Shown: positions 1,604 through 51,790 of the stretch, one piece after another | Position numbering within the stretch: the stretch's first letter is position 1 | How the letters are laid out: every line of letters starts with the position of its first letter | IMG/VR virus record: IMGVR_UViG_3300047444_000617 | Location: 1 to 64,000 of that record | Length of the DNA: 64,000 nt | Origin: a virus | Reading direction: 5' to 3' (one strand) | Translations under genes and position numbers: made by a program | The notes under the pieces: generated by a model | The model's database searches: none | Seen by the model: only the letters and a program-made list of their open reading frames with translations | Told to the model about the DNA's origin: nothing

Positions 1604-3178
1604 TTACCGATGGAATTGGGAGTTGCTGACTTCGACCTCGGGCATGGTGAACTCCTTGGTCAGGACGCACGCCAGCGCCAGCGAGTCGGCGTAGTCGTCG
1701 TGTGCGTCGGCCGCGCGGGGCGCCTGGGCCAGCACGTAGGGGCCCTCGAAGTTCTTCTCCAGGTCTTCCATCTGCTGGCGGAAGCGCTTGTAGGACTTCA
1801 GGCGGCGGGTGTACGCGTGCGCGGGCCAGGTCAGCAGGCCCCGGTCCATCAGTTCCATCAGGTGCTTCCAGCGCTTGGACTGCTCGGGGCGCTGGGAGGA
1901 CAGGGGCACGATGGTGAGGTCGGGCAGCAGGACCTTCAGGCGGGATATGACGACGTCACCGACGCCGCCCTCGTCGACCGCGATGGCCATCACGTTGTAG
2001 TTCCGCACGAACTCCACGATGCGGAAGTACTGGGCTTCCCAATCCAGTCCGCCGAGGTCGAGCCAGTTCAGGATGCGGTGCTCCATGAAGCCGTACTCGT
2101 CCGGCCGGTCCCAGCGCACCCACACCGCCGTGACGATCGTCGAGTCCTGCTTGCGGGCAGGGTCGATACCGATGACGACAGGCGTGGCGTGGTAGGCGTG
2201 GACGGCCTGCATGGACACATCGCCCAGCTCGTCCAGGCGCTCGCTGGTGGTGAACATGCCCTTGTCGAGCAGCCATATCAAGCGGTAACTCAGTTTGAAC
2301 TCGTCGGAGTCCTCACCGATGCGCAGCAGTTCCTTCTTGACGAACTTGGCGTAGTTCTCGTTCCACTTCGAGACTTCCTTCCAGTCCGCGTCGAAGTGGT
2401 TCTGCCGCGAGCCGCGCCGGGTCGCTGCGCGCTTGTTGAGTTGGATCTGGTTGTAGAAGACACCCTTCTCGTAGGTCGGGGTGCCGGTGAAGACCATGGT
2501 CGCGTTCGTCGAGGCGCCCATCGGCCCGATCGACTTGTTGACCATCTTCTCGTCGGCGCCCTGGCACTCGTCGATGAGGATCAGGTGGTAGGTGCGGCCT
2601 TCGATGGTGGCGCGGGGGTGGCAGGTCTGCTTGCGGACCAGGGAGCCGCTGCGCTTGAGGGAGATGGAGCGGCCCTTGCCCTGCACGGTGTCGTCGATCT
2701 CGGGGTCGGCCATGATTTCCAGGGCGTGTTCACTGGTCAGGCGGGCCACGATGCGGCCGTAGAGGTTGTCGGCCTGCTCCTCGACGGGAGCGAAGGCGCC
2801 GACCCACAGGCCTTCCTTGTACTTGCCCAGCAGGTCGGGGAAGATCTTCGCCAGCCGGGGGAACATGATCATGCAGGCGGCGACGGTGTTGGCCACGGTC
2901 TCGGACTTGCCGGACTGGCGGGCGAACAGCGCGGTGAGCGTGGCGCCGTCGTTGATGATCAGCGACTCGATCAGGCGGGCCGCGAAGGGGCGCTGGTATC
3001 CGTACAGCGGGTGGCCGGAGACTTCATCGACGATGAGCAGCATCTTCGAGACGATCTGGTCGACGAATGCCTGGCTGGTCTGGTCGAGCACCACTTCGGT
3101 GTCGAGCCGCGCCTGACGCTCCTCGTCGGTTTCGTCGCTGATGAAATCGTCGTACTCGACGTCCTCCGCTGCAGACAT
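1604..3178 (-). CDS. terL: Terminase large subunit
   Basis: Walker A ARQSGKS, Walker B LILIDE, nuclease motifs GIDPAR and HDDYADS. Confidence 0.92.
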   Translation of the reverse strand: MSAAEDVEYDDFISDETDEERQARLDTEVVLDQTSQAFVDQIVSKMLLIVDEVSGHPLYGYQRPFAARLIESLIINDGATLTALFARQSGKSETVANTVAACMIMFPRLAKIFPDLLGKYKEGLWVGAFAPVEEQADNLYGRIVARLTSEHALEIMADPEIDDTVQGKGRSISLKRSGSLVRKQTCHPRATIEGRTYHLILIDECQGADEKMVNKSIGPMGASTNATMVFTGTPTYEKGVFYNQIQLNKRAATRRGSRQNHFDADWKEVSKWNENYAKFVKKELLRIGEDSDEFKLSYRLIWLLDKGMFTTSERLDELGDVSMQAVHAYHATPVVIGIDPARKQDSTIVTAVWVRWDRPDEYGFMEHRILNWLDLGGLDWEAQYFRIVEFVRNYNVMAIAVDEGGVGDVVISRLKVLLPDLTIVPLSSQRPEQSKRWKHLMELMDRGLLTWPAHAYTRRLKSYKRFRQQMEDLEKNFEGPYVLAQAPRAADAHDDYADSLALACVLTKEFTMPEVEVSNSQFHR

Positions 3179-4154: not shown

Positions 4155-5231
4155 TCACTGCGCCCGGCGCAGCGGGACGACGTTGTCCTGCGACACCATC
4201 GCTGTCAGGAACGGCTTGCCCTTCATCGTCAGATCCCGGCGCTTGCGCTCACTGGACAGCCCCAGGTACCTCTCGGTGGTGGCCATGTTCGAGTGATGCA
4301 GCAGTGCCGATACCGTCCGCAGCGCCGCGTCGTACCCCAGCTCGGTGGACATCGAGTCGAAGTACGCGCGAGCGACCGCACGGCGCAGGGTGTGCGTCCC
4401 CTCGTAGCGCGTCGGCAGCCCCAGCGCCTCCAGCGCGGCCTTCACGATCTTCTCCGTGCGCTGCACCGGCCGGTCGGGGTGCCACACATACGGGGTGCGC
4501 TCCAGCACGCGGCGCCCCGTGGTCTCGTCCAGGTAGTTGCGCGCGATCAGGTTCCCCGACCGCGCCGGGAACAGGTGGTCCTCGTCGCGCAGCGGTCGGC
4601 CCAGGAGCTGCTGGTACTCGACCATCCACGCGCGCAGCTCCCTCTCCAGGTCAGCGGTCAGCGGCATCTCGTCCTCCTCCCGCGTCTTGATCACCGTGAC
4701 GAACAGCTCCGAGCGGGCGAAGTCGACGTCCCCGACCTTCATGCCGGTGATCTCGCTGGCACGGCAGGCGGTGTTGATCGCGGTCGCCAGGTAGGCCCGG
4801 TGCATCTGGCACTGCGCCTGGTCCAGCAGCATCAGCAGGATGGACGGCGCGGGCTGCTGCCGCTTGCGCCGGGGTTCCGGCAGCGCCTCGACACCGCTGA
4901 GGTAGTTCTCCAGGTGGGTGTATCCCTCGGCCTTGCAGAAGCCGAAGAAGCATTTCAGCCGCTTGCGGTACGCGTTGTGCGTGCCCGGCCCGACCGGCTC
5001 ACGCACCGGCTGCCCCTTGATACGGGTGGAGTGGGTGTCCATCAGACCGCCGGGGCCATAGAAGAAGTCGCGCACGTTCTGGGCCGAGAGCTGCTCGAAG
5101 CTGGGATCCCCCAGGTGCGCGGTGAACCGGGGCAGCAGGGTGCGGTCCACCCGCATGGTGTTGTCGGCCTTGCCCGAGCGCTGGCGGATGGCCAGGTACT
5201 CGGCGACAGCGCTGCTCAGTGCGATGGTCAC
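4155..5231 (-). CDS. Tyrosine recombinase/integrase
   Basis: TACRASE (R), HTLRR (H-x-x-R), LLHHS, TTERY (catalytic Y). Confidence 0.92.
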   Translation of the reverse strand: MTIALSSAVAEYLAIRQRSGKADNTMRVDRTLLPRFTAHLGDPSFEQLSAQNVRDFFYGPGGLMDTHSTRIKGQPVREPVGPGTHNAYRKRLKCFFGFCKAEGYTHLENYLSGVEALPEPRRKRQQPAPSILLMLLDQAQCQMHRAYLATAINTACRASEITGMKVGDVDFARSELFVTVIKTREEDEMPLTADLERELRAWMVEYQQLLGRPLRDEDHLFPARSGNLIARNYLDETTGRRVLERTPYVWHPDRPVQRTEKIVKAALEALGLPTRYEGTHTLRRAVARAYFDSMSTELGYDAALRTVSALLHHSNMATTERYLGLSSERKRRDLTMKGKPFLTAMVSQDNVVPLRRAQ

Positions 5232-5555: not shown

Positions 5556-7049
5556 TCACGCCGCTGTGAACACCGGCTCGATCCTGCTGGGGTCGAACCT
5601 CGCACCACGGGACTTGGCCGGATGCATGAGGGCGGTCACCAGCACCGTACGCACCACGTCACGCTGCCGCTCCAGCGACAACCCCGTCCAGCCGCTCTCC
5701 AGCACCGCCTTCTCGATAGGCTGCTCGGCCGACGTGATGAACAGAGCCTTGTCCGCCCGCAGAGCGTCGCGCTCCTGCTCCAAGGACTCCAGCGTGGTGG
5801 CGTAAATGGCCGCACGGATCTCGCGCTTGGACCACTTCGCCTTCAGCTCCGCAATGTCCTTCTCCACCAGCGTCAGCTCGTTGTCACGCCCCCAGGAGAC
5901 CGTCTTCTTGACGTCCCGCGCGGCCAACGACCGCTGCAGCGAACCCCACACGAGCTTGCGGACAAGCTCGTCCGTCGGGCCGCCAGAGATGGACAGCGCA
6001 CCGCACTGGTCGGCGAATCGCTTCTCGCACACATAGGCGTACGACCTCTGCTTGCCCCTCTTCTTGTCCCACACAGGAATGCCCCGCAGCTTGTACCCGC
6101 AGCGCCCGCAGCGCGCGATCCCGGACAGCAGGTACTTCGTCGTCGTGTCCCGGGATTCCTTGCGCTGCCGCTTTGCGATGGTGGCCATGACGGCTTCCCA
6201 CTTCTCGACGGTCATGATTGCGGGCCAGTCACCCATGACGTAGTTGCCGTCGTCGTCTTTCAGGGGCTCCCCCTGGTAGACGCGAATACCCGCGTTGCGG
6301 GCGCGCATGAGGAGCTTGCGCACGTTCTGCTGGGAGAAGGGCTTGCCGTTGTTCGGGCTGACTACCCCCGCCTCTTGCCAGCGGATCTGAATGGTGCCCA
6401 TCTTGTCGCCAGCGATGAAGGCATCGGCCCCGTCGTTGAGCACCTTGGCGGCTTTCGGATCCACCTTCTTGCGGTCGTCAGGATCCCAACCGTATGCAGG
6501 CGTTCCTCCGTGGAACTCCCCGTGCTCGGCCTTGCGCTTGTTCTCCCGCTTGATACGGCGAGAGGTGTCCTCCGAGGACTTGTTCGCGATGTTCACGAAC
6601 AGGCGCGCAGAGAAGCGGCCGTCAGCGGTGGTGAGGTCGAAGTTCTGGCCGGACAGCGTGTCGAAGACCAGCGGAATCTTGGTGGTCTCGTACACGTCGA
6701 TGACGCGCTCAAGGTCCCGTGGCTGGCGGAAGATGCGGTCGATGTCGTAACCGAGTATTCCCCCCAGCCGCTTGGCCTTGAGGTCTCCGACCATGCGCTC
6801 GAAGTCCTTGCGCTTCACGGTCCGCTGGAAGGCCGAGAGGTTGTTGTCCTCGTAGAAGACGACCCTCTCGGGGACGATGCCATGCCGCTCAGCGAGTCCA
6901 AGGATGTCCTCGCGCTGCTTCAGGACGCCCTTACGCTCCCGCTCCTCCGCCTCCTCCAAGGTCATCAAGCCCAGCTTGACCGCGCGGCGGATCTCCGTGA
7001 GGTCTGCGTCCGAGATGCGCAGGTAGCCGCCAACTGGTAGCAGTTCCAT
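5556..7049 (-). CDS. Large serine recombinase (integrase type)
   Basis: YLRIS catalytic motif, DIDRIFR, recombinase domain, Zn ribbon LSGIARCGRCG, coiled coil; start chosen at ATG 7049. Confidence 0.93.
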   Translation of the reverse strand: MELLPVGGYLRISDADLTEIRRAVKLGLMTLEEAEERERKGVLKQREDILGLAERHGIVPERVVFYEDNNLSAFQRTVKRKDFERMVGDLKAKRLGGILGYDIDRIFRQPRDLERVIDVYETTKIPLVFDTLSGQNFDLTTADGRFSARLFVNIANKSSEDTSRRIKRENKRKAEHGEFHGGTPAYGWDPDDRKKVDPKAAKVLNDGADAFIAGDKMGTIQIRWQEAGVVSPNNGKPFSQQNVRKLLMRARNAGIRVYQGEPLKDDDGNYVMGDWPAIMTVEKWEAVMATIAKRQRKESRDTTTKYLLSGIARCGRCGYKLRGIPVWDKKRGKQRSYAYVCEKRFADQCGALSISGGPTDELVRKLVWGSLQRSLAARDVKKTVSWGRDNELTLVEKDIAELKAKWSKREIRAAIYATTLESLEQERDALRADKALFITSAEQPIEKAVLESGWTGLSLERQRDVVRTVLVTALMHPAKSRGARFDPSRIEPVFTAA

Positions 7050-7178
7050 GCGAGAATACCCCCCTAACCACGGCGTTGGCGGTTGATACCGCCGTGTTAG
7101 GACGATACCATCAAGTTCAACCCACCGCCCACGCGGTAGGTTGAGAATGTTAGTTCTCGACCGGAGGCCTGACCTGCG

Positions 7179-7283
7179 ATGATGACCGAAGAAGAGTGGT
7201 TGAAGCACTGGGCGTCGAAAGCTCCCGCCATCCCCGACGAGCGTCTTCGAGAGCTGCTGAACAAGATCAAGTGCGAGGAGTAG
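7179..7283 (+). CDS. 34-aa micro-protein, paralogue of 5347-5502
   Basis: GGAGG RBS; MMTEEEWLKHWASKAPAIPDERLRELLNKIKCEE. Confidence 0.55.
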   Translation: MMTEEEWLKHWASKAPAIPDERLRELLNKIKCEE

Positions 7284-7357
7284 CCGCCTCCCGCACACAC
7301 GCTGGGCACCGATTGCGCCTTCTCTCCTGCATACGGGAGGGAAGGCGCAATGTTGTT

Positions 7358-10656: not shown

Positions 10657-11790
10657 TCATTTGGGCAGGTGGCGCCTGCGCAGGGGGTCGTGGCGCTGCG
10701 CGCCGACCGGAACGACCTGGGTCGGCGGGTCGACGTTCTCCGGCAGCTCCTCCAGTTTGGTCCAGTAGGGCTCGACCCATTTCGTCGTGGACTGGGTGCG
10801 CTCGTTGGTCTTTCCCGGCCCGAACCACACGGTCTTGAAGTGACCGGCGCGGTGCTGCGGGCCGTACTCGACGCCGGAGGGGATGGAGATCGCCGACCGG
10901 TCGGCGCTGTTCGCCCGGCGTCGCGCTTCGTGTAGCGCCGGGCCTACGTACCAGCCCACCCGCACCCAGAAGGGGTCGCGGTCGCGGGGCTTGCGTCCCT
11001 TGCCGGTCTTCCTGCGGCCGGTGACGTTGACCGGTGGCTCCTGAACGTCGCGGTTGTCGCAGCACAGGTAGGTGATGACGGAGAAGGCTGCCTGCAACAG
11101 CGGGCCGAACGTCTTGATGGCATCGCTGCGGTCCCTGCCGTCCTGCGGGTCTCCGTGCCACGACAGCAGGTGCGTGACGGCCTCCTTGACCGTGAAGGCA
11201 TCCCGGCCAGTCGGCAGGGGGATCAGGTCCCTCTGACCGCCGGGGACCAGCTCGCCGGTCTCCTCGTCCACATGGTCGTAGAAGAACAGCACCCCCAGGC
11301 CTTCGCGCTGCGGGTCGTTGGTGTTGCACAGTGCGCTTCCGACCCAGCCGAAGATGAAGAACCCGCGCACGTAGCTGGTGGGAGTTACTCCGCGCTTCTC
11401 CTTCACTGGCCAGGGGTCGGGGAGTACGACCATGGGGTTGATGTGCGGGAGACGGTCGAAGATGCGGCCGGGCACCTTGTCCATCTTGCTGCGGTAGAGC
11501 GCGGCGGCCAGCTCCTCGTCGAGGTCGTAGGCCACGCGGCCGTTGCGCTTCCACATGTCGCAGACGGCGATCTCGCCCATCAGATCGCCGACCTTGACGC
11601 GCGTCTCCAGGTCGTAACTGACCGCGTCCTCGTAGTCCCAGGTGAAGGAGATCCCCCGGGACAGGCTGTTGAGCTTGCGGGCGATGTTGGGCACGCTCCG
11701 CAGCTCGTTTCCCGCCTCGGTGAGCATGTCCACGTGGCGCGTGGCGAAGCGGTGCGCGCGTACCCCGCTGGTGGTCTTGCGTGATGCCAT
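10657..11790 (-). CDS. AcrVA2/FinQ-like family protein
   Basis: W-x-x-x-G-x-x-x-Y-x-LD...IFDRLP N-terminal pattern and C-terminal PQHRAGHFKTVWFGPG...KWVEPYW; promoter TTGCGT-N17-TAGCCT at 11827-11855. Confidence 0.5.
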   Translation of the reverse strand: MASRKTTSGVRAHRFATRHVDMLTEAGNELRSVPNIARKLNSLSRGISFTWDYEDAVSYDLETRVKVGDLMGEIAVCDMWKRNGRVAYDLDEELAAALYRSKMDKVPGRIFDRLPHINPMVVLPDPWPVKEKRGVTPTSYVRGFFIFGWVGSALCNTNDPQREGLGVLFFYDHVDEETGELVPGGQRDLIPLPTGRDAFTVKEAVTHLLSWHGDPQDGRDRSDAIKTFGPLLQAAFSVITYLCCDNRDVQEPPVNVTGRRKTGKGRKPRDRDPFWVRVGWYVGPALHEARRRANSADRSAISIPSGVEYGPQHRAGHFKTVWFGPGKTNERTQSTTKWVEPYWTKLEELPENVDPPTQVVPVGAQRHDPLRRRHLPK

Positions 11791-14019: not shown

Positions 14020-14207
14020 CAGCCGCGCAACGAACAGCGGTTGGAAAGGTGAGTGACAGCGTCACCACTCTCCGCTAGGTAGGATGCCCCCTAACGGCCC
14101 GTCATGCAAGTGCACGCGCTAGGCAAGTGCGCGATCGAGTGAAGGCTGTCCCGGACTATGAGGTGGTGGCAGACTGTGGGGAAGTACCCGCAACCAGGGA
14201 GGTCGCC

Positions 14208-15071
14208 TTGGCGGACAGTCCGACCGTGCTGAAGCGACGGCTCGGCGCCGAGCTGCGCAAGATGCGCCGTGCCCAGAACCTGACCACCGCGCAGGTTTCG
14301 AAGGCGCTGGGCTGGTCCGAGTCCAAGGTCAGCCGCATCGAGACGGGCAAGTCTCCGCTGTCTGACCAGGATGCCAAACTTCTGCTTGCGCAGTACGGGG
14401 TTGAGAAAGCCGAGGAAGTACGGCAGTTCATCTCTCTGGTGCGCAAGAGCCGACAGAACGGTTGGTGGCACTCCTTCGGGGATGCCCTGCCCGAGTGGTT
14501 CAAGCCCTACCTAGGGTTCGAGACGGACGCGGCGTCGATCTGGACGTATCAGAACGAGCTGGTGCCTGGCCTGCTGCAGACCGAGAGGTACGCCCAGGCG
14601 GTTATCCGTTCGACAGAGGTGAGCTTCTCCTCCGAAGAGGTGGAGACTCGCGCAAGTGCACGCGTACAGCGCCAGGACATCCTGACCTCCGACAACGCTC
14701 CCAAACTCTGGGCGGTCCTCAACGAGGCGGTGATCCGTCGGGTTGTTGGCTCACCTGTCATCATGCAGGAGCAGTTGAATGCCCTGGCGGACGTGGCGTA
14801 CTCGCTCCCGAACGTCACGGTCCAGGTGCTGCCATTCGACGCCGGGGCCCATGTCTCGATGGGCTACAGCTTCTCCTACCTGTCCTTCGAGGATGTACCC
14901 GGCTCCATCGTCTACTCGGAAGGGATCACGAGCGGCACGTACTTCGACAAGCCATCCGACCTGAGCCGTCACGAGGATATGTTCCAGCGGCTGGTCGCCG
15001 CGTCCGAGCGGCCCGAGAAGTCCATCACCATGATCAGAAACATCGCAGAGGAATTCAGCCATGCAGGGTAA
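14208..15071 (+). CDS. XRE HTH / DUF5753 regulator (WhiJ/Scr1 family)
   Basis: RRLGAELRKMR...SKVSRIETG; VPGLLQTERYA; TTG start after GGGAGG. Confidence 0.9.
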   Translation: MADSPTVLKRRLGAELRKMRRAQNLTTAQVSKALGWSESKVSRIETGKSPLSDQDAKLLLAQYGVEKAEEVRQFISLVRKSRQNGWWHSFGDALPEWFKPYLGFETDAASIWTYQNELVPGLLQTERYAQAVIRSTEVSFSSEEVETRASARVQRQDILTSDNAPKLWAVLNEAVIRRVVGSPVIMQEQLNALADVAYSLPNVTVQVLPFDAGAHVSMGYSFSYLSFEDVPGSIVYSEGITSGTYFDKPSDLSRHEDMFQRLVAASERPEKSITMIRNIAEEFSHAG

Positions 15072-20246: not shown

Positions 20247-20319
20247 CTCCCCGACCTGGGTTCGAACCAGGAACCTACGGATTAACAGTCCGTTGCTCTG
20301 CCAGTTGAGCTATCGGGGA
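20247..20319 (-). tRNA. tRNA-Asn(GTT)
   Basis: TCCCCGATAGCTCAACTGGCAGAGCAACGGACTGTTAATCCGTAGGTTCCTGGTTCGAACCCAGGTCGGGGAG cloverleaf. Confidence 0.95.
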
Positions 20320-20324
20320 TTGCG

Positions 20325-20405
20325 TACCCAAGGTGGGACTTGAACCCACACGCCTTTCGGCGCCGCTTTTGAGGCGGCTGACTGTGCCAATTCGTCTACT
20401 CGGGC
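20325..20405 (-). tRNA. tRNA-Leu(CAA)
   Basis: Anticodon arm GCCGC-CTCAAAA-GCGGC, long variable arm, GGTTCAAGTCC T arm. Confidence 0.9.
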
Positions 20406-20466
20406 GGGGCCGCGCGAACCCCTCGGTCGGATCGGGTCGATCCGCGCGGCGTTTCCTTCGTGAATC

Positions 20467-21129
20467 CTACTTCACCGTGTAGCGCCCGTAGTAAACGGAG
20501 TGGGTCCAGGGCTTGTAGAGGTTGACTCCCCTGCCCGGCTTTTCTGCCTCAAGCCAGGTGTGGGAATTGACGTAGATCCCGACGTGGTAGACGTACCCAC
20601 GCGCGTCGTGGACGAAGAAGAGGTCCCCGGGCTGCGGGGTCCTCACGTGCTGGCTGTGCCGGTACTGGTCCTCGGCGACGCGGGAGACGGACTTCCCCAG
20701 ACGCGCGAGCGTGTACTGGGTGAATCCCGAGCAGTCGAAGCCCCTGGACGGCGAGGTGCCGCCCCACACATAGCGAACGCCCCGGTAGGCCTCGCCCCTG
20801 GCCACGATCTTCTGGCCGGAGGTCTGCCTGTGCTTGGGCTTGGTGACCGGCTTGTGCTTGGTTACCGGCTTGGGCACGGTCTTGGTCGGGGCGGAGCGGG
20901 TTATGTAGATCCGCTCGCCCGGGTAGATGCGGTTGGGGTTGGCCAGGTGGTTGAGGGCAGCCAGGTGCTGCCAGGAGGTGTGGTGCCTGTAGGCGATGCC
21001 ACCGAGGGTGTCCTCGGCGTGAACGGTGACGTACGTGGACTGGGGTACTTGCGCCTGCGCGCTGGACGTCGCGAGCGGGGAAAGCACCAGTGTTGCGGCG
21101 ATCAGAAGTCCGGTGATCGTCTTCTTCAT
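20467..21129 (-). CDS. Secreted LysM-NlpC/P60 peptidoglycan endopeptidase
   Basis: Signal peptide, LysM (DTLGGIA...NRIYPGERI), YVWGG...FDCSG...HVGIY. Confidence 0.92.
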   Translation of the reverse strand: MKKTITGLLIAATLVLSPLATSSAQAQVPQSTYVTVHAEDTLGGIAYRHHTSWQHLAALNHLANPNRIYPGERIYITRSAPTKTVPKPVTKHKPVTKPKHRQTSGQKIVARGEAYRGVRYVWGGTSPSRGFDCSGFTQYTLARLGKSVSRVAEDQYRHSQHVRTPQPGDLFFVHDARGYVYHVGIYVNSHTWLEAEKPGRGVNLYKPWTHSVYYGRYTVK

Positions 21130-21140
21130 AACAGCACTCC

Positions 21141-21290
21141 GTACGCCTGCGAGATTAGGTGACGGACTCGGGATAAGTGCCTTTCCCTACCACAAATGAG
21201 ATTGCGGATTCGCCCCAGTGAAGCGTTTCGGTCTCCCGCCCCTGTTCAGAGGTTGAGTACAGTGTTCGTCCAGGAACAGGGTTAAGCGTC
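21141..21290 (-). ncRNA. c-di-AMP (ydaO/yuaA) riboswitch
   Basis: CGCTTAACC...GGGGCGGGAGACC...TGGGGCGAATC...GTAGGG...CCCGAGTCCGTCACCTAATCTCGCAGGCG follows the ydaO consensus order; directly upstream of a cell-wall hydrolase RBS. Confidence 0.85.
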
Positions 21291-21299
21291 TGGACAAAG

Positions 21300-21372
21300 T
21301 GGCCCCCTCTGGAATCGCACCAGAATCTCCCGCTTTTCAGGCGGGCGCATTAACTGCCTCTGCCAAAGGGCC
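21300..21372 (-). tRNA. tRNA-Phe(GAA), atypical D arm and T loop
   Basis: GGCCCTT/GGGGGCC acceptor, CCCGC-CTGAAAA-GCGGG, T loop TGCGATT. Confidence 0.8.
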
Positions 21373-21377
21373 GTGAG

Positions 21378-21451
21378 TCTGGACGGCAGGATTTGAACCT
21401 GCGACCCCCTGAATCCAAATCAGGCGCGCTACCAGGCTGCGCTACGTCCAG
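21378..21451 (-). tRNA. tRNA-Pro(TGG)
   Basis: CTGGACG/CGTCCAG acceptor, CCTGA-TTTGGAT-TCAGG, GGTTCAAATCC. Confidence 0.92.
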
Positions 21452-22421: not shown

Positions 22422-22916
22422 TCACGGAGTGTGACGCTCGGTGCTGCGTGCGTACCAGTCCACCTGCTTCGGACGGACCACATCGCTGAACACCGACGCA
22501 TCGGTGTTCGTCTCTGGAGTTACGACGTGGGAACTTGTGTGGCTGTCCTCCACCGCCCTCGCGCCAAGCACGCCCGCCAGTAGCGGCGTTGCTACCACGG
22601 CCGCGATGCCGACGATCATGCGCTGGAGGGCCATTGTGCGCTTGCGGCGGTGACTCGCGGGTCTCTGGGGTACCTGCAGCGGGTGCTTGGCGGGCTCCTC
22701 GGGGAACCAGAAGCCGAACTCCTGCCGGTCCTCGATCCAGCCGAAGATCAGCTCCCCGGCCTCTACCATCACCAGCAGCTCGTGCTCGATCTCTGCTTCG
22801 GTGATGTCGTGCTGCTCTTCGCGCTCGGGCTGCATCGCTCCGAATCGGGCCCGCAACTCACGGACGTCCGTCTCCCCCGTGTCTTCCGCGTCTTCGCGAA
22901 ACAGCCTGTTTGCCAT
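22422..22916 (-). CDS. Single-pass membrane protein
   Basis: GAGGGAGG RBS; basic stretch then TM helix. Confidence 0.6.
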   Translation of the reverse strand: MANRLFREDAEDTGETDVRELRARFGAMQPEREEQHDITEAEIEHELLVMVEAGELIFGWIEDRQEFGFWFPEEPAKHPLQVPQRPASHRRKRTMALQRMIVGIAAVVATPLLAGVLGARAVEDSHTSSHVVTPETNTDASVFSDVVRPKQVDWYARSTERHTP

Positions 22917-23042: not shown

Positions 23043-23228
23043 CTACCAGGTGGAGTCCATGGTGGTGATCTGAACCGGCTCCTGTACCGCCCAGGTGGAG
23101 TCGGCCACTGTCACGGAGCTGCTGGCGGGGTGGTCGGTGGTCGAGCTGGCAGACGCGGCGCCCACGGCCAGAACGACCGACGCGGCGAGTGTGATGACCG
23201 TGATGGTGATGCGGCGAGTGATCTTCAC
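23043..23228 (-). CDS. 61-aa secreted peptide precursor with two DSTW motifs
   Basis: GTG after GAAGGAAG; MKITRRITITVITLAASVVLAVGAASA|SSTTDHPASSSVTVADSTWAVQEPVQITTMDSTW. Confidence 0.75.
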   Translation of the reverse strand: MKITRRITITVITLAASVVLAVGAASASSTTDHPASSSVTVADSTWAVQEPVQITTMDSTW

Positions 23229-23403
23229 AAGACTTCCTTCATTGGGGAGATGCAGTCGAGAAGCGGATGACAAGTGGTTTCCCCTAGACGCTGGCGTTGT
23301 CTACTGGGGTCCAGTGGTTGATACATTGACCGTCTCCGCACCCCCACAGCAAGCGGAGTGGCCTTCAGAATCACGCACCTTCCGGAATACGCAGGCCCCT
23401 CAC

Positions 23404-24402
23404 ATGTCCCACACACAACCGTCACATCCCTGTAACCACGAGCTTCCACCGCAGGCCAGAGACCTGTACCGCAAGGCACTTCTCCGCCAACAAGTCGACA
23501 TGAGCGCTCCCGGACTCGATCAGGCAGTGCACCTGGGGGTGTTGGTCCCCGACGCCAACGGCGACGGTGGGTTCCGTCCGGCCGAGCCCGGACAGGTCAT
23601 CGCGCGGCTGATCGGCGACGCCACGCACAAGTTGGTGGAGATCAGCGACTTCATCGCCACCCTCCCGGCGATGCGCGAGGCGCTGACAGAAATCTACCGC
23701 GAGACCCGAACACCCGTTCGGTCTGGAGCGGTGGAGCACCTGCACGGCAACGATCTGATCAACGAACGGATCGAGGAGACCATCGGCCAGGCCCAGCAGG
23801 AGCTGATCACCGCTCAGCCCGGCGGGCCTCGAACCAGGCAGGTGCTGGAGAGATCCATCGGCCGCGACTCCGAGGCGCTGGAGCGCGGGGTGAAGATGCG
23901 CACCCTGTACCACGCGACCGCCCGCCACAGCCCCCTCACGCAGGAGTGGGCACGGGTGATGGCGGAGAAGGGCGGCGAGGTCAGGACCCTGGACGCCCCC
24001 TTCCTGCGCCTGATACTCGTCGACCGCAAGTCGGCCTTCATCCAGGACTGCCTGGACCGCGACAGCGACGAGCCGGACAACGCCTGGGCTCACCTGATCA
24101 AGGATCCGGCCGTCTGCGCCTTCCTCGCGGAGATCTTCGACCGGGACTGGAACCGTGCCGACTACTGGCACGGCTCGGAGACGGAGGAGCCTGTGGGTGG
24201 TGTCACCACCAGGATGCAGCGCTCCATCCTCCGGCAACTGTCCTCCGGCCGGACCCAGGAGCAGACGGCCCGCGACCTCGGCCTGAGCACCCGGACACTG
24301 CAAAAGCACCTCACGGCTCTGCGTATGAAGGTGCCTCACCTTCATTCGGTGCCGCAAATGACGTACTGGTGGGCAACGTGCCCGGATCGGGTCCTGGACT
24401 AA
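23404..24402 (+). CDS. TrmB-like sensor domain + LuxR-type HTH regulator
   Basis: RGVKMRTLY...RLILVDRKSAFI central domain; C-terminal ILRQLSSGRTQEQTARDLGLSTRTLQKHL; start uncertain. Confidence 0.85.
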   Translation: MSHTQPSHPCNHELPPQARDLYRKALLRQQVDMSAPGLDQAVHLGVLVPDANGDGGFRPAEPGQVIARLIGDATHKLVEISDFIATLPAMREALTEIYRETRTPVRSGAVEHLHGNDLINERIEETIGQAQQELITAQPGGPRTRQVLERSIGRDSEALERGVKMRTLYHATARHSPLTQEWARVMAEKGGEVRTLDAPFLRLILVDRKSAFIQDCLDRDSDEPDNAWAHLIKDPAVCAFLAEIFDRDWNRADYWHGSETEEPVGGVTTRMQRSILRQLSSGRTQEQTARDLGLSTRTLQKHLTALRMKVPHLHSVPQMTYWWATCPDRVLD

Positions 24403-24406
24403 ACAG

Positions 24407-24449
24407 CGAAAAGCCCCCACCACGGATTATCCGCAATGGGGGCTTTTCG
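24407..24449. terminator. Bidirectional terminator
   Basis: CGAAAAGCCCCC...GGGGGCTTTTCG. Confidence 0.75.
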
Positions 24450-24457
24450 ATTCAGGT

Positions 24458-25390
24458 CTAGAAGTTGCCGGGCGCTACCTGCAGGCACCGCAGGCCGAGC
24501 AGCCGCCACGCGTCCACGACCTGGTTGCGGTCGTCGAGGACCAGCCAGACGTTGTACTTGCCGAGGATGTCCCGGCGGTAGATCTCCGTCTTCACGATCG
24601 AGTCCTTGCGCGCGTCCATGGTCATGCGGGTCAGCAACGGCGCCGACCTCGTCCAGGACCCGACGTGGATGTCCAGCCACTCCCGCGTAGGTTCGTAGGC
24701 CCGCCGGTCACGGCCGGAGACGAAGATGATCTCCGACCCGGCATCCCGCAGGGTGTTCACGAGGTCGACGATGTCGTGGTGCACGTCGTCCTCGCCGACG
24801 CGGGCCCAGTCGAACGGGCTGCGGTCGGCCATCTTGGCCAGCGTGCCGTCCAGGTCCACCAGGACCGCGTCCGGAAGGCCCTCCACGTACTCCGGAGCCG
24901 GTGCGGGCTTGGGCGCCAGGTACTGGTCGTACATCTTGCGGATGACGGCCTCTCCGACGCTTCTCGCCCGCTTCAGGTCGCGGTTGATGCAGGTATGAAG
25001 CGGGACGTCGGTGAAGTCCTTCACGACGAACTCGGCGTCGTGCTCCTTGGCCATCGCACGCAGCCGCTGCTCGTGGGCCGGGTTGAAGTTGGTGTCGTCC
25101 ACGATCACCGAGACACCCTTGGACAGGTACCCGGCCGCCAGGAAGTCACGGGCCTGGACAGTGCGTCGCTCGTTGGGCCCCTTGAACACGCCGTCGTTCA
25201 GCATCGCCCGCAGGTCGTCCTTGTTGACGCGCACCATGGTGCCCGGCTGGGCCTTGCGGACGGTCTCCTTGGCCCAGGTGGACTTACCCGAGCCCGGCAG
25301 GCCCTTGGTCATCGTCAGCGTCTTCACGGGCTTCTCCGGGGGAGGTGTGGGCTTGGGTCGGCAGCACACGCACTTGACGGTCTCGGTCAT
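24458..25390 (-). CDS. Polynucleotide 5'-kinase/3'-phosphatase (T4 PseT-like)
   Basis: GLPGSGKST, DDLR, DLDGTLA, SGR, DDRNQVV. Confidence 0.93.
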   Translation of the reverse strand: MTETVKCVCCRPKPTPPPEKPVKTLTMTKGLPGSGKSTWAKETVRKAQPGTMVRVNKDDLRAMLNDGVFKGPNERRTVQARDFLAAGYLSKGVSVIVDDTNFNPAHEQRLRAMAKEHDAEFVVKDFTDVPLHTCINRDLKRARSVGEAVIRKMYDQYLAPKPAPAPEYVEGLPDAVLVDLDGTLAKMADRSPFDWARVGEDDVHHDIVDLVNTLRDAGSEIIFVSGRDRRAYEPTREWLDIHVGSWTRSAPLLTRMTMDARKDSIVKTEIYRRDILGKYNVWLVLDDRNQVVDAWRLLGLRCLQVAPGNF

Positions 25391-25566
25391 GCGTTGCCTT
25401 TCAGGTAGGCGTCGTGGACGCGCTTGGTGTACCGGGGCATGATGATCGGGGCGGAGTAGTCCGGTTGCAGGCGCAACTGGCCACCCCCGCGCAACCACAG
25501 GTAGGGCTTGCCGAACAGCACGACTTCGTGCACTCGAAAGGCGGGCCTCCTCATGCGGTGTCCCAT
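25387..25566 (-). CDS. Hypothetical protein
   Basis: Coupled overlap with neighbours. Confidence 0.45.
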   Translation of the reverse strand: MGHRMRRPAFRVHEVVLFGKPYLWLRGGGQLRLQPDYSAPIIMPRYTKRVHDAYLKGNA

Positions 25567-25802
25567 CAGGTGATCACCGGCTCTAGCCGGAAGATCCGGC
25601 TGGGCGGGAGTAGAACTTCGTCTCCCTCCTTCGGCCGGAATCCTCCAGAGCCGTGGCGAAGGCGCACCCTGGCCGACCCGGTGGGAGTGATCCTCTCGAC
25701 GAAGCCCCACACGGTGTCCGGATACCTGCCGAACACCGCTCCGCCTACGGTGTCTCCGACCCGCACGATCCGTCCCACAGCGTCCTTGGTTTCGGTCCGC
25801 AT
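25566..25802 (-). CDS. Hypothetical SH3-like protein
   Basis: DAVGRIVRVGDTV pattern. Confidence 0.5.
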   Translation of the reverse strand: MRTETKDAVGRIVRVGDTVGGAVFGRYPDTVWGFVERITPTGSARVRLRHGSGGFRPKEGDEVLLPPSRIFRLEPVIT

Positions 25803-26929
25803 CAGGCGGTGTCCTCGTTGGCGTTCGAGAACGGCTTGTCGTAGTCCGGCCGAACTGCCTTCCACAGCCGCTCGGAGACGTCCTTGCCGTCGTACATCCC
25901 GAACAGCACGTCCTTGTACGGCGAGTGCAGGGCCAGCAGCGCGAACTCCTTGCGCCGCTTGGCTGCGTCCTCCTCCGGGCGCCGGACACGCCGCATGATC
26001 CACTCGAACGCTTCGTTCGCCTCGTTCTTCCTGTCCTCGAAGGCGCGCTCCAGGGCCTGGGCCTGCTTGTGCACCCAGTCGTAGAACTCGTCCGGCACGT
26101 GGTCGATGAACGCCGCGATGCCCTGTCCGTGAGCCAGGGCGTCCCACACCGAGATGCTGCTGACGTTGGTCAGGATGCGGTGCAGCCGCACGTACTCGTC
26201 GAACTTGATCTTCACCCGCATGTCGCTGCCGAGGAAGCGGACGACGAACCCCTCCTCGTTGGCCTGCTGGGCGGCGGCCAGCACGTCGGCGAGGGTCTCG
26301 AACCGCCGGATGTGGGTGTTGACCGGGCCGGGGAAGTCATAGGTGTTGAAGATGCCGAAGTGGTCGTCCACGAAGGGCAGCGTCCGGCCGGTCTCGGTGT
26401 CGAGGACGGCGATCAGGACCAGGTCGTCCATGTCCTTGTAGTCGACGACGATGCGGTTGCCCGGATAGACGATCTCGAAGAGGTACGTCAGTCCGCCGAT
26501 CGGCTCGAACTCGGGGTACCGGGTGCGCAGCACTTCCGTGGCGTGTAGCGCCTGCGGGGAGGTGAAGGAGCCACGCGTGGCTATCGCGGACTCCCCGGTA
26601 TGAAGCGAGTACAGGACGCCGAGTGACCCGTCCCACTTGATCGCTGCCTCCACCGGCACGCTCATCAGCCGCGCCTGCTCGTCGGAGGGGATCTGCGACC
26701 AGTTGAAGAACTTCTCGAACGGCCGCGAGACGATCTCGTCGGTGACCGCGTTGACGATCAGCCCCCGGGTCTTCTTGGTGACCTCGTTCCACGCGCTGTC
26801 GTACTGCGCCTTGTTGGTGTAGTTGAGGATCACCAGCGGTTCGGTGGGATGGTTCTGGATGCGCACGTATCCGGCGTTGACGTTGTCGTAGAGCGCGGAC
26901 TTGTCGATGACGTCATACAGGTTGGTCAT
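25802..26929 (-). CDS. RNA ligase (Rnl1-like)
   Basis: RPFEKFFN, KWDGSLG, ATRGSF, FEIV, EGFVV, KIKFDEY. Confidence 0.9.
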   Translation of the reverse strand: MTNLYDVIDKSALYDNVNAGYVRIQNHPTEPLVILNYTNKAQYDSAWNEVTKKTRGLIVNAVTDEIVSRPFEKFFNWSQIPSDEQARLMSVPVEAAIKWDGSLGVLYSLHTGESAIATRGSFTSPQALHATEVLRTRYPEFEPIGGLTYLFEIVYPGNRIVVDYKDMDDLVLIAVLDTETGRTLPFVDDHFGIFNTYDFPGPVNTHIRRFETLADVLAAAQQANEEGFVVRFLGSDMRVKIKFDEYVRLHRILTNVSSISVWDALAHGQGIAAFIDHVPDEFYDWVHKQAQALERAFEDRKNEANEAFEWIMRRVRRPEEDAAKRRKEFALLALHSPYKDVLFGMYDGKDVSERLWKAVRPDYDKPFSNANEDTA

Positions 26930-26949
26930 GCAGTTCTCCTGGTGGTGGG

Positions 26950-27195
26950 TTACAGGCGCTGGTCGAGGGCCGTGACGACCCGGTCGGCGAACATCTCGAA
27001 GAACAGGTCGGGGAGGTGGGAGAAGTCGCCGCCGAGCCACGCCCGAGCGGTCTCCTCGACGATCTTCTGGGCCTTCTCGCGGTCGTCGGCCTGCCGCTTC
27101 AGCCAGGTGCCCCCGACGCTGTCCTTGGGGAGCGCCGCGTGGCTGAGGTTGGTCCACGTCTTACCGGCGCGCGTCTCGGCGGGGATGGTGTTCAT
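26950..27195 (-). CDS. Hypothetical protein
   Basis: Packed ORF with RBS. Confidence 0.55.
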   Translation of the reverse strand: MNTIPAETRAGKTWTNLSHAALPKDSVGGTWLKRQADDREKAQKIVEETARAWLGGDFSHLPDLFFEMFADRVVTALDQRL

Positions 27196-27819: not shown

Positions 27820-28494
27820 TCAGACCTTCCGCAGGTAGTTGATGAAGTCCTGCAGCCGGTCGGTGCGCGGGCGCGGTGGAAGGATGCCTGTGCGGTCGTT
27901 GAAGGTGTCGAAGGCCTTCCAGAACTCCTTCTCGATCTGCTCGCCGGTCATCTCGTCGAACGCCCAGTAGAACTCCGGGTCCGGAACCTTGACCGTCAGC
28001 GTGCCGAACTCCAGCAGTTGCTGGCCCTGGCGCAGCAGCCGGAAGCAGTGCCGGGCGTGCTTGGCCACCCTCTTCTGCCGGGCCTCGTTGGCCAGCTCCT
28101 GCTTGATGCGCTTGATCTGGCCCATGGCGTAGCCGCCGTAGGCGGAGCGAACGTACGGCTCGGACAGGAAGTCCTGGCGGATGTCGACCAACCACTCCCC
28201 CTCCCAGGACGTTTGCTCGTACTCCGCCAGGTACATCAGGTCCATGATCGTGGGGTTGCACTTCAGGGCCAGGTCGATGTACTTGCCGACCTCGTGCATC
28301 GTGCTGTCGGGGGCCGTGGTGACCACCGAGTCCGTGTGCTTGGCCCCGATGGTGAAGAAGTCCGCAGTGGGGCGGGCGAAGATGCCCAGCCGGTCGACGT
28401 CCGACCCCTCCCGGGCGAGGCCGAAGGCAGTACTGCCCACGACACCGGTCAGCAGGATGTTGCGCGGCTGGAGTTCGCGCGGTCCGAGAGCCAT
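27820..28494 (-). CDS. Pol-beta superfamily nucleotidyltransferase (RlaP/YcgL-like)
   Basis: GSTAFGLAREGSDVDRLGIF, NPTIMDL, KHARHCFRLL. Confidence 0.85.
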   Translation of the reverse strand: MALGPRELQPRNILLTGVVGSTAFGLAREGSDVDRLGIFARPTADFFTIGAKHTDSVVTTAPDSTMHEVGKYIDLALKCNPTIMDLMYLAEYEQTSWEGEWLVDIRQDFLSEPYVRSAYGGYAMGQIKRIKQELANEARQKRVAKHARHCFRLLRQGQQLLEFGTLTVKVPDPEFYWAFDEMTGEQIEKEFWKAFDTFNDRTGILPPRPRTDRLQDFINYLRKV

Positions 28495-50248: not shown

Positions 50249-51790
50249 TTACTCTCCCTGTTCGTTGAAGAAAGTTGGTACATCGACGACCTCAGCGTCG
50301 ATGAATCCGCTCGACTGCTCGATCATCCGGTCCGCTGACATCGGACGGTCGAGCGTTGTCATCTGCTCCCCCGCGTCCCGCCCGAAGATCCGGCTGATCA
50401 TCCCCGCCTGGGCGCCGTTCCCCTTGGCTTCCAGTTTCACGGAGAAGCCCTCCTGCTCCAGTTCGGTCTTGACCTTGACCAGTTTCTGAAGCCGGTCGAT
50501 CTCGCCGGACAGGTTCGGATCCGCGTATCCGCCGGTCATGTCCTCGACCATCTTCATGAAGAGCACCCGCTGCGCCTGCATCTCGATGAGCGAGTTCTGC
50601 AGCGACTGCATCTGCTGCTTGCTCTTCACCTGTACCGGGATGTCGTACGCGCAGTTGCTGTGCTGGTCGTACGCCGGGCACTTCGAGGACAGGAAGCAGG
50701 AGGAGCACTGCCGCATGGACTGGCTGCGCACCGTGACCAGGGGGACGTCACGTTCCTTGTTGAGCCCGTCCTCGGGGTCGGTGTAGGTCTCCTTCTCCTG
50801 CACCAGGCCGATGACCGGCAAGTTGGTACGCGGCCGGTCCTTCCTGGGCATGGGAGTTGATACGCCGTTGAGCGGTTCGGAGTCCGCCGTACCAACTTCA
50901 CCCCCCTGCAATTGAGCGAAACCGGAAAGTAGCCCGGAGGGGGAGGTAGTAACTGCTTCGGGTGAGTTCGGGCGGTGCTGCTCGATGGAGGCCGCCAACT
51001 GCTGCCACGACCAGATGGTGAAGCGCAGGACCTCGTCGTTGTCGCCGTCCTCGATCTTGTCGGCGTCGAAGCCCGCTTCTATGAATAGCGTGCGGTGCCT
51101 CTTTCGTGCCTGCTCCTTGTACTTCTTCGGGTAGCGCTTCAATTCCCGGCCGGTCCACACAATGGTGTCCCCGTATTGGCTGGGGGAAAGCCAGGAGGTC
51201 GACGCCACGCTGTCCCAGGTGACGGCTGCCATTTCCGCTGGCTTCGTCATGGCGACGCCGTGGAGCAGCGTGCCGTATTTCCTGGTGATCTCGTTGAGGA
51301 CCGGTGTGAGATTCCGTCCGTCGAGATCCGTCTGGGTAACTCCGACGCGCTTGTATCGCTGGGCGAGGCGGTCGAGTTCTTCGACTCCCCATTCCGCGTG
51401 CCATATGGGAAGGAATTTGTCTTCCGGGATGTCCTCCCAGAAGTCCTCCCGCATTGCGGCTATCCATTCGCGTCCGAGAACGACCGCGTCGAACTCGGAC
51501 ACCATATGAAGCGAGTCGATGTTCTGCTGGACGAACGCCATGTAGTGCGCGGCGATTTCCTTCAGTTCAGCGACGGAGTACTTGTCGTCCTCGGCCTTGT
51601 TCACCGTGTAGGCGCCGGAGTCCAGGAACACCTTCTGGTTGGGCAGGTAGTGGTCCTGGATCAGCCAGGGCCTGGAGAACTTGGTGCGTCGCCGCAGCCC
51701 CATGTACGACAAGGAGACGTTCTCCACGCCTTCCTCGGCCAGCATCTTCCGCCAGCCTGGAATCTCAGAGCCTCCCAGAAAGAGGTGCAC
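50249..51790 (-). CDS. TGT/DpdA-like barrel fused to Cys4 C-terminal domain
   Basis: FLDSGAYT, PIWH, LHGVAMT, DSVASTSW...YG; CSSC...CP...C. Confidence 0.6.
   Translation of the reverse strand: MHLFLGGSEIPGWRKMLAEEGVENVSLSYMGLRRRTKFSRPWLIQDHYLPNQKVFLDSGAYTVNKAEDDKYSVAELKEIAAHYMAFVQQNIDSLHMVSEFDAVVLGREWIAAMREDFWEDIPEDKFLPIWHAEWGVEELDRLAQRYKRVGVTQTDLDGRNLTPVLNEITRKYGTLLHGVAMTKPAEMAAVTWDSVASTSWLSPSQYGDTIVWTGRELKRYPKKYKEQARKRHRTLFIEAGFDADKIEDGDNDEVLRFTIWSWQQLAASIEQHRPNSPEAVTTSPSGLLSGFAQLQGGEVGTADSEPLNGVSTPMPRKDRPRTNLPVIGLVQEKETYTDPEDGLNKERDVPLVTVRSQSMRQCSSCFLSSKCPAYDQHSNCAYDIPVQVKSKQQMQSLQNSLIEMQAQRVLFMKMVEDMTGGYADPNLSGEIDRLQKLVKVKTELEQEGFSVKLEAKGNGAQAGMISRIFGRDAGEQMTTLDRPMSADRMIEQSSGFIDAEVVDVPTFFNEQGE

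Follow-up and report, generated by a model that had tools for sequence, protein, structure and literature searches.

The first 64 kb of the virus record IMGVR_UViG_3300047444_000617, a 110,248-bp IMG/VR record with direct terminal repeats and 65% GC, contain a pair of divergent genes encoding a small, apparently exported propeptide and a regulator. This stretch of 64,000 nucleotides is referred to below as the window. With slightly better than even confidence, we interpret the gene pair as a peptide-signalling cassette carried by a temperate phage of the Streptomyces type. The same pairing is found in phages, prophages, plasmids and chromosomes, with dozens of related cases in all, and it is therefore probable that the cassette represents a form of peptide signalling between cells that has not been described before. 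The observations behind this interpretation are the genes themselves, the domains and fold of the regulator, the conserved pairing, purifying selection at the level of a short peptide motif, and the position of the pair in the lysogeny region of relatives. The elements concerned are the following.

23043..23228, minus strand: propeptide gene, 61 aa plus stop, GTG start
23148..23228, minus strand: export signal, residues 1-27, with MKITRR, a hydrophobic core and A-S-A before the predicted cleavage site
23091..23102, minus strand: internal DSTW copy, residues 43-46, preceded by A (ADSTW, 42-46); kept in the related viral locus L003 along with the VQEPVQ spacer
23046..23057, minus strand: C-terminal DSTW copy, residues 58-61, preceded by M (MDSTW, 57-61); the stop codon, 23043-23045, follows directly
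23233..23239, minus strand: Shine-Dalgarno element AAGGAAG, 4 nt before the GTG; identical element in L003
23229..23403, between the two genes: divergent control region, 175 bp, 89% identical to L003
23404..24402, plus strand: regulator, 332 aa, with a TrmB/TrmBL2-like N-terminal part and a C-terminal LuxR/NarL helix-turn-helix (HTH)

The original prediction, made from the nucleotide sequence of the window, had described a 61-aa signal-peptide gene at 23043-23228 with an A-S-A cleavage site and two DSTW copies, one of them C-terminal, and a divergent gap of 175 bp to the regulator gene. These features are all present: A-S-A precedes S28, the second DSTW stands directly before the stop codon, and the gap is exactly 175 bp. 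The open reading frame (ORF) is called as a gene in the source record, and its GC content at third codon positions (GC3) of 0.87 is on par with that of real genes in a genome of 65% GC. The n-region MKITRR has a charge of +3 and is followed by a hydrophobic core of 20-25 aa, features from which cleavage after A-S-A is predicted; the T-R-R in the n-region could alternatively be a twin-arginine translocation (Tat) motif, in which case export would be via Tat. The 34-residue part past the core is acidic and devoid of Lys and Arg. A tblastn search of phages with the propeptide gave no match, a protein-database search returned only the query itself, and in PHROGs there was only a weak match to phrog_16415, a family of unknown function. 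The motif was also considered as a sorting signal of the LPXTG, PEP-CTERM or GlyGly-CTERM type, and this was rejected because it lies at the very end of the protein with no membrane span after it and is present in an additional internal copy.

Relatives of the pair were compared at 6 loci from IMG/VR, 9 from a set with one genome per species and 16 from metagenomes, and in three Streptomyces genomes in full. Further loci were the 29 best new ones from a 301-genome Streptomyces sample, the flanks of eight being extended to 5.5 kb. Streptomyces phage Chymera is the only isolated phage with a homologue of the regulator (gp29, 38% identity). Divergent from it lies gp30, a signal-peptide protein of 59 aa in which AQA is followed by DPGWG, a 19-residue spacer and a second DPGWG directly before the stop. 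A divergent signal-peptide ORF with a repeated C-terminal motif was found at all six viral loci with upstream DNA, namely Chymera and the following five.

L003: DSTW, two copies; regulator 74% identical to that of the window
L004: DSTWG, two copies
L005: DTTW, four copies
L007: DSTWG, three copies
L008: DSHW, two copies

The same pairing was seen at eight of the nine Streptomyces genome loci from the one-per-species set and at one metagenome locus (L018). In a maximum-likelihood tree of 68 regulators, that of the window belongs to a clade of 36 members with a support of 100. An exported D-x-x-W(G) peptide adjoins the regulator at 28 of the 35 assessable loci of this clade; 25 of these peptides contain 2-6 copies of the motif, and the other three have one copy at the C-terminus or one clear copy accompanied by a variant. 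Further motifs within the clade are DSDWG, DSSWN, DSVW, DTGWG, DPGWD (three copies), DMGW[GD] (four), DSGWG (three) and DIGW (six). The peptides tabulated in relatives are 59-85 aa long, with an n-region of +2 or +3, a hydrophobic core of 14-26 aa and a small-x-small cleavage site. One of them is already annotated: on plasmid pSAM1 of S. ambofaciens ATCC 23877, positions 1986-2213 encode the 75-aa protein WP_053143246.1, which consists of a signal peptide and three copies of DTAWG and whose gene is divergent from a regulator homologue. The original prediction had proposed that homologues of the regulator be collected and inspected for co-occurrence and co-variation with such peptides. Co-occurrence is borne out by the 28 of 35 clade loci, and co-variation by the motif types DSTW, DSTWG, DTTW, DPGWG/D, DSHW, DSDWG and D-x-G-W(G), each of which follows one regulator clade.

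The sister clade of 32 regulators, which includes paralogues from cassette-bearing genomes, mostly lacks such a peptide neighbour. Exceptions are a locus with two copies of DSQWG (L074) and a distant regulator subclade on metagenome contigs L020-L031, whose accompanying exported peptides have one C-terminal copy of D[ST][GS]WGG; three of these peptides have a Cys pair just before the motif, and in L020 and L021 the peptide gene is located downstream of the regulator gene and convergent with it. A different arrangement is found at three loci on Streptomyces chromosomes or contigs (L075, L076 and L082). They carry tandem paralogous regulators, one from each main clade, and a divergent gene for an exported peptide with 3-6 copies of D-x-G-W (DMGWG/D, DSGWG or DIGW) and a short tail after the last copy.

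The way in which the peptides vary is informative about their functional unit. Motif copies, both within and between genes, differ only by synonymous codons (ACA/ACC/ACG/ACT, GAC/GAT, TCC/TCG, CCG/CCC). Variable are the residue before Asp, the residues after Trp, the length and sequence of the spacer, and the leaders; x-Val comes after many of the internal copies. The ratio of nonsynonymous to synonymous substitution rates (dN/dS) between the window and L003 is about 0.8 for the peptide as a whole and 0.21 over its last 20 residues; that of the regulator is 0.22. Such a pattern would be expected of a precursor whose functional units are short Trp-ended peptides. It also bears on the possibility that the small ORF is a chance, unexpressed frame in high-GC DNA. 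Spurious ORFs are frequent at high GC, and 61 of 4701 ORFs, Arg/Pro-rich and in the wrong frame, do have repeated C-terminal 4-mers. Against this stand the Shine-Dalgarno element, the GC3 value and the canonical signal peptide, the conservation of position and motif in at least 28 loci with little else in common, and the synonymous-only differences between motif copies. In addition, of 5177 stop-to-stop ORFs in 258 kb comprising the window and related loci, 23 end in D-x-x-W followed by zero to two Gly; every one of these is a small signal-peptide ORF beside a regulator homologue, and there is no match elsewhere. The comparative data thus effectively refute a chance origin.

Beyond the pair itself, gene neighbourhoods differ from clade to clade. 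Integrase and repressor-like genes adjoin the pair in Chymera and in prophages. In Chymera the pair is flanked by a tyrosine integrase gene and an annotated immunity repressor gene on one side and by a small HTH gene on the other. Locus L017 has the same layout, its small HTH gene being of the Cro/CI type according to Pfam. In the DTTW clade the pair has a ParB-like gene on one side and on the other a recombinase-like gene, behind which lies a tyrosine integrase gene. The gene downstream of the peptide gene varies as well: in the window and L003 it encodes a 164-aa single-span protein and is followed by an Lsr2 gene, in Chymera and L017 a two-span protein of 87-89 aa, and in the DTTW clade a small soluble protein. 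Because these neighbours change between clades, the peptide-regulator pair is the only constant. This is relevant to a reading in which the small protein is the precursor of a modified peptide, either Trp-modified or otherwise akin to ribosomally synthesized and post-translationally modified peptides (RiPPs), or an antimicrobial or adhesive repeat, with the LuxR-type gene as an ordinary pathway regulator. The invariant Trp could serve as a modification site, and multi-core precursors and LuxR-type regulators are common in actinobacterial loci for peptide natural products. No modifying enzyme, dedicated transporter or immunity gene, however, is conserved beside the pair in any clade, and the tabulated peptides carry a predicted Sec-type signal, which RiPP precursors usually lack. 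We therefore consider this reading quite improbable.

The start codon of the regulator is backed by the alignment with homologues of 54-74% identity. Two of its domains are central to the signalling interpretation.

23731..24171, plus strand: putative ligand domain with phospholipase D (PLD) fold, residues about 110-256; identified with Foldseek, and modelled by AlphaFold2 (AF2) with a predicted local distance difference test score (pLDDT) mostly of 82-94
24205..24393, plus strand: LuxR/NarL-type HTH, residues about 268-330; Pfam GerE, with PDB profile matches to NarL, GerE, DevR and RhlR

Pfam places PF00196 (GerE) at residues 269-309 (E = 4.1e-5; 23.6 bits versus a cut-off of 23.5) and, below threshold, the TrmB effector domain PF11495 at residues 110-268 (E = 1.5e-3; 18.2 versus 22.2 bits). 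A search of the PDB with the regulator profile retrieved TrmBL2 over positions 36-250 (E = 2.2e-10) and otherwise only HTH proteins. The AF2 model, built with 17 homologues in the alignment and having a mean pLDDT of 81, consists of a winged-helix remnant (residues 16-59), a 40-residue helix (62-101), an alpha/beta domain (110-256) and a four-helix HTH (270-330). In Foldseek the first three parts together matched TrmBL2 (5bpd, E = 7e-14) and TrmB (3qph, E = 2.6e-8), and the alpha/beta domain matched PLD-fold proteins such as Nuc (1byr; template modelling score 0.74 on the target). The residues that are invariant in the homologue alignment are Q138, P139, G141, R166, T167, Y169, G190, R194, D207 and W249. 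They include no H-x-K of the catalytic HxK(x)4D (HKD) motif; for this reason the PLD fold, though kept, is not catalytic.

Both ends of the protein depart from the TrmB plan. Pfam detected no complete N-terminal winged helix (PF01978): the alignment shows that the clade of the window lacks about 20-30 residues kept by distant relatives, and only two helices and a hairpin of this domain are seen in the model. The C-terminal sugar-binding beta subdomain of the TrmB type is absent, its place being taken by the LuxR/NarL HTH. Within the TrmB lineage the regulator is a divergent member, in which part of the winged helix has been lost and a LuxR HTH gained. The original description as a TrmB-like ligand domain joined to a LuxR HTH is thus correct in both parts, but the former is more exactly the PLD-fold subdomain of TrmB/TrmBL2. 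The claim that the receptor would not be of the RRNPP type is likewise supported. A tetratricopeptide repeat (TPR) family was found neither in Pfam at E values up to 0.1 nor by AF2/Foldseek or PDB profile, and Pfam, Foldseek, PHROGs and the PDB profile revealed no similarity to AimR. Pfam detected no autoinducer-binding domain (PF03472), and the NCBIfam matches cover the HTH only. Apart from the HTH, PHROGs, NCBIfam and PADLOC assigned the regulator to no family, and the 164-aa protein had no family match in them either. The regulator family is large, with 538 cluster representatives at E <= 1e-30, homologues at E <= 1e-50 in 108 of the 301 sampled Streptomyces genomes, and 90 plasmids of the Streptomyces group that carry a homologue.

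Taking these features together, we propose the following model. The 61-aa product would be exported and, as its sequence suggests, lose the signal peptide after A-S-A. Extracellular proteases would then cut the acidic pro-region into two Trp-ended peptides, either DSTW or ADSTW plus MDSTW; such cleavage into D-x-x-W(G) units is suggested by the repeat architecture and by the multi-copy Phr propeptides of phages (PMC11343458). As they accumulate, the peptides would be taken up by oligopeptide permeases of the host and bind to the PLD-fold domain of the adjacent, cytoplasmic TrmB-like/LuxR regulator. We favour this domain as the binding site because the pairing is conserved and because of its role as a sensor in TrmB, where the PLD-like subdomain supplies most of the sugar contacts. 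Peptide binding may alter the interaction of the LuxR HTH with the shared 175-bp control region, and transcription of the peptide, membrane-protein and Lsr2 genes to the left, and of the regulator gene itself, would change as a result. A phage or prophage could thereby read the number of related active genomes nearby, following the logic of arbitrium and Rap-Phr with unrelated parts. Co-folding of the regulator (with alignment) and propeptide residues 28-61 gave a score of 0.01 in one job without controls, which is not evidence either way.

Several observations weigh against this model. We know of no member of the TrmB/PLD-fold group that binds a peptide, and a signal of 4-5 residues is at the short end of known peptide pheromones. 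A conserved third component, i.e. an AimX-like output gene, was not detected across the clades, and the 175-bp control region contains no palindrome and hence no palindromic operator of the LuxR type. Five close homologues of the regulator have no peptide within 5.5 kb. In a metagenome-assembled Streptomyces from the DTTW clade (L013, 3300-4000) the signal-like start has been kept and all DTTW units have been lost, which points to either a decayed cassette or an assembly fault. Finally, because the peptide and regulator genes are linked, the match between motif and clade fits co-evolution without proving it and is explicable by common descent alone.

Some of these points are what one would expect under the main alternative, in which the regulator governs the peptide gene without serving as receptor for the peptide. 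The peptide would then act outside the cell, and the regulator would sense some other small ligand. Possible extracellular targets would be a host membrane sensor, the cell surface (as a decoy or blocker, e.g. in superinfection exclusion) or competitors. The known ligands of the TrmB family are sugars. Most of the wider regulator family, paralogues in the same genomes included, has no peptide next to it, so the fold must sense other ligands in these members; the five clade members without a peptide and the sufficiency of linkage for the motif-clade match fit here as well. Against such a division of labour stands the pairing of peptide and regulator as the sole feature kept across clades. Moreover, selection on a unit of 4-5 residues, variable spacing and an exact C-terminus are more suggestive of a small ligand released by processing than of a folded surface protein, and no membrane sensor gene is conserved nearby. 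We regard a regulator that is not the receptor as unlikely, though clearly deserving of consideration, and retain peptide sensing by the adjacent regulator as our working model.

The following candidate elements were found in the shared control region.

23271..23279, plus strand: CAAGTGGTT, copy 1 of a direct repeat, candidate operator half-site; conserved in L003
23311..23319, plus strand: CCAGTGGTT, copy 2 of the direct repeat, in the spacer of a weak rightward promoter candidate
23297 and 23322: weak rightward promoter candidate, TTGTCT at the former position and TACATT at the latter with 19 nt between them, putative in function

CAAGTGGTT and CCAGTGGTT are 40 bp apart, and both are kept in L003. 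The 9-mer CMAGTGGTT occurs five times in the window (11853, 19872, 23271, 23311 and 60915) versus 0.71 expected, and none of 100 shuffles reached five. Two of the copies are those in the control region; another is located 63 bp upstream of the start of gene 10657-11790. That the direct repeat serves as operator of the regulator is speculation. A sigma-70-like leftward promoter was not found in the 175-bp region, and an alignment of the intergenic regions of the DTTW clade revealed conserved blocks but no clear repeat.

By analogy, the cassette resembles arbitrium and Rap-Phr in its presumed mode of working but belongs to neither. RRNPP systems are recognized by a propeptide of 10-100 aa, Sec export, a receptor of 250-500 aa, direct adjacency of the genes and peptide binding by TPRs (PMC10075063). 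The sizes of propeptide (61 aa) and receptor (332 aa) and the adjacency (175 bp, divergent) at this locus fall within this definition, export is likely from the sequence, and the TPRs are missing. Searches for such systems require TPRs and hence cannot detect a cassette of this kind (PMC10075063). The arbitrium system of SPbeta-like Bacillus phages (AimP-AimR-AimX) is likewise phage-borne, with, as predicted for the present cassette, a small Sec-exported propeptide whose active unit lies at the exact C-terminus, a peptide gene that adjoins the gene for a cytoplasmic receptor acting as transcription factor, and peptide variants that track receptor clades; the pair is also in the lysogeny region of relatives such as Chymera. 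By contrast, the putative receptor described here combines a TrmB/PLD fold with a LuxR HTH and has neither TPRs nor homology to AimR in sequence or fold. The genes are divergent rather than in tandem as in arbitrium, with 2-6 copies of the motif and no conserved aimX-like output, and the host phylum is Actinomycetota.

Multi-copy pheromone propeptides are an established feature of phage Rap-Phr systems, and the tandem pheromones of Bacillus phages share with the present peptides the (predicted) export of a multi-copy propeptide, (proposed) extracellular proteolysis and carriage by phages and other mobile elements (PMC11343458). Rap proteins, however, belong to the TPR receptors and target response regulators, the Phr units have no sequence relationship to the present motifs, and the receptor candidate studied here has its own DNA-binding domain and a different fold. 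With the archaeal regulators TrmB and TrmBL2 (3qph, 2f5t, 5bpd) the regulator shares the order of its parts, a winged-helix region being followed by a long dimerisation helix and then a PLD-like domain; it differs by its truncated winged helix and by the LuxR/NarL HTH that replaces the C-terminal sugar-binding beta subdomain of TrmB. TrmB responds to sugars and TrmBL2 is a chromatin protein, and neither has a secreted peptide as partner. A ligand-gated regulator that ends in a GerE/LuxR HTH and is encoded beside a signal-producing gene, as proposed here, would be reminiscent of LuxR receptors for acyl-homoserine lactones (AHLs) and of LuxR solos, but the autoinducer-binding domain is missing and the proposed signal is a ribosomal peptide, not the product of an enzyme. 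The gamma-butyrolactone systems of Streptomyces (A-factor/ArpA) serve density signalling, the role proposed here for the cassette, in the same host genus. Their parts are unrelated, consisting of small molecules made by AfsA-type enzymes and receptors of the TetR family.

To our knowledge, peptide communication of phages has been known only from Bacillota and only with TPR receptors of the RRNPP type. In line with the earlier statement that no characterised example was known, the openly available literature contained no description of the peptide-regulator pairing, of these motifs or of peptide quorum sensing by Streptomyces phages. It is tempting to go further and to see in the cassettes the first gene-encoded, unmodified linear-peptide quorum-sensing family in Actinomycetota, distributed over temperate phages, prophages, phage-plasmids and chromosomes of Streptomyces. 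It would use a TrmB/PLD-like receptor fold with LuxR HTH never before linked to peptide sensing, employ orthogonal dialects (DSTW, DTTW, DPGWG, DTAWG and others), set lysis-lysogeny or induction decisions of phages, and represent an independent, arbitrium-like invention. We advance this comprehensive claim tentatively, its chances being in our view a little below even. Signals of Actinomycetota are typically small molecules made by enzymes (PMC10075063), and a ribosomal peptide system would, if true, change the small-molecule picture of Streptomyces signalling. Streptomyces development has long been known to depend on oligopeptide import, and the system would also provide a candidate for the signal involved, as well as orthogonal peptide-switch parts for an industrially important genus. 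Tractable systems are phage Chymera on S. venezuelae ATCC 10712 and plasmid pSAM1 (L083) of S. ambofaciens ATCC 23877.

By its gene content the record looks like that of a temperate actinophage: it encodes a large terminase, an endolysin, integrases of both the tyrosine and the serine type, four tRNAs and a tRNA-repair set. All relatives found belong to Streptomyces, which makes this genus the likely host; DNA similarity searches of the window against isolated phages gave no match. The large terminase and integrase genes have the following positions in the window.

1604-3178: large terminase
4155-5231: tyrosine integrase, side by side with the serine integrase and next to the large terminase gene
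5556-7298: large serine integrase

The product of a plus-strand gene at 14127-15071 falls into families of phage DNA-binding proteins and repressors (phrog_9908, E = 3e-78; phrog_3), which makes it a candidate immunity repressor. Almost all genes of the window are on the minus strand, the regulator gene being among the few plus-strand genes of its region. Its immediate surroundings comprise the following features.

22422..22916, minus strand: protein of 164 aa with a single hydrophobic span, encoded directly downstream of the peptide gene; homologue at the same position in L003
21931..22356, minus strand: Lsr2-like nucleoid-associated protein (Pfam Lsr2_DNA-bd, E = 2e-9; phrog_1223, E = 8e-17)
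24407..24449, no strand assigned: long hairpin between the convergent regulator and polynucleotide kinase-phosphatase genes, likely a two-way terminator

The 126-bp gap between the peptide gene and 22422-22916 yielded no terminator, and the latter is possibly a co-transcribed output. The membrane protein, Lsr2 and tRNA/riboswitch array that had been noted downstream of the peptide gene were identified as the single-span 164-aa protein, the Lsr2-like gene, four tRNAs and a cyclic di-AMP (c-di-AMP) riboswitch. On the minus strand, 20247-21451 contains tRNA-Pro, tRNA-Phe, the riboswitch, a hydrolase gene, tRNA-Leu and tRNA-Asn. The riboswitch, of the ydaO type (21130-21269, 62.7 bits), precedes a gene for a LysM-NlpC/P60 hydrolase (20467-21129), and since tRNA genes flank the two we read the arrangement as a host-type riboswitch inside a phage tRNA array. 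The tRNA/RNA-repair set, also on the minus strand, consists of polynucleotide kinase-phosphatase (24458-25498), RNA ligase (25802-27157) and nucleotidyltransferase (27820-28494) genes, and a queuine tRNA-ribosyltransferase-like gene is located at 50249-51790.

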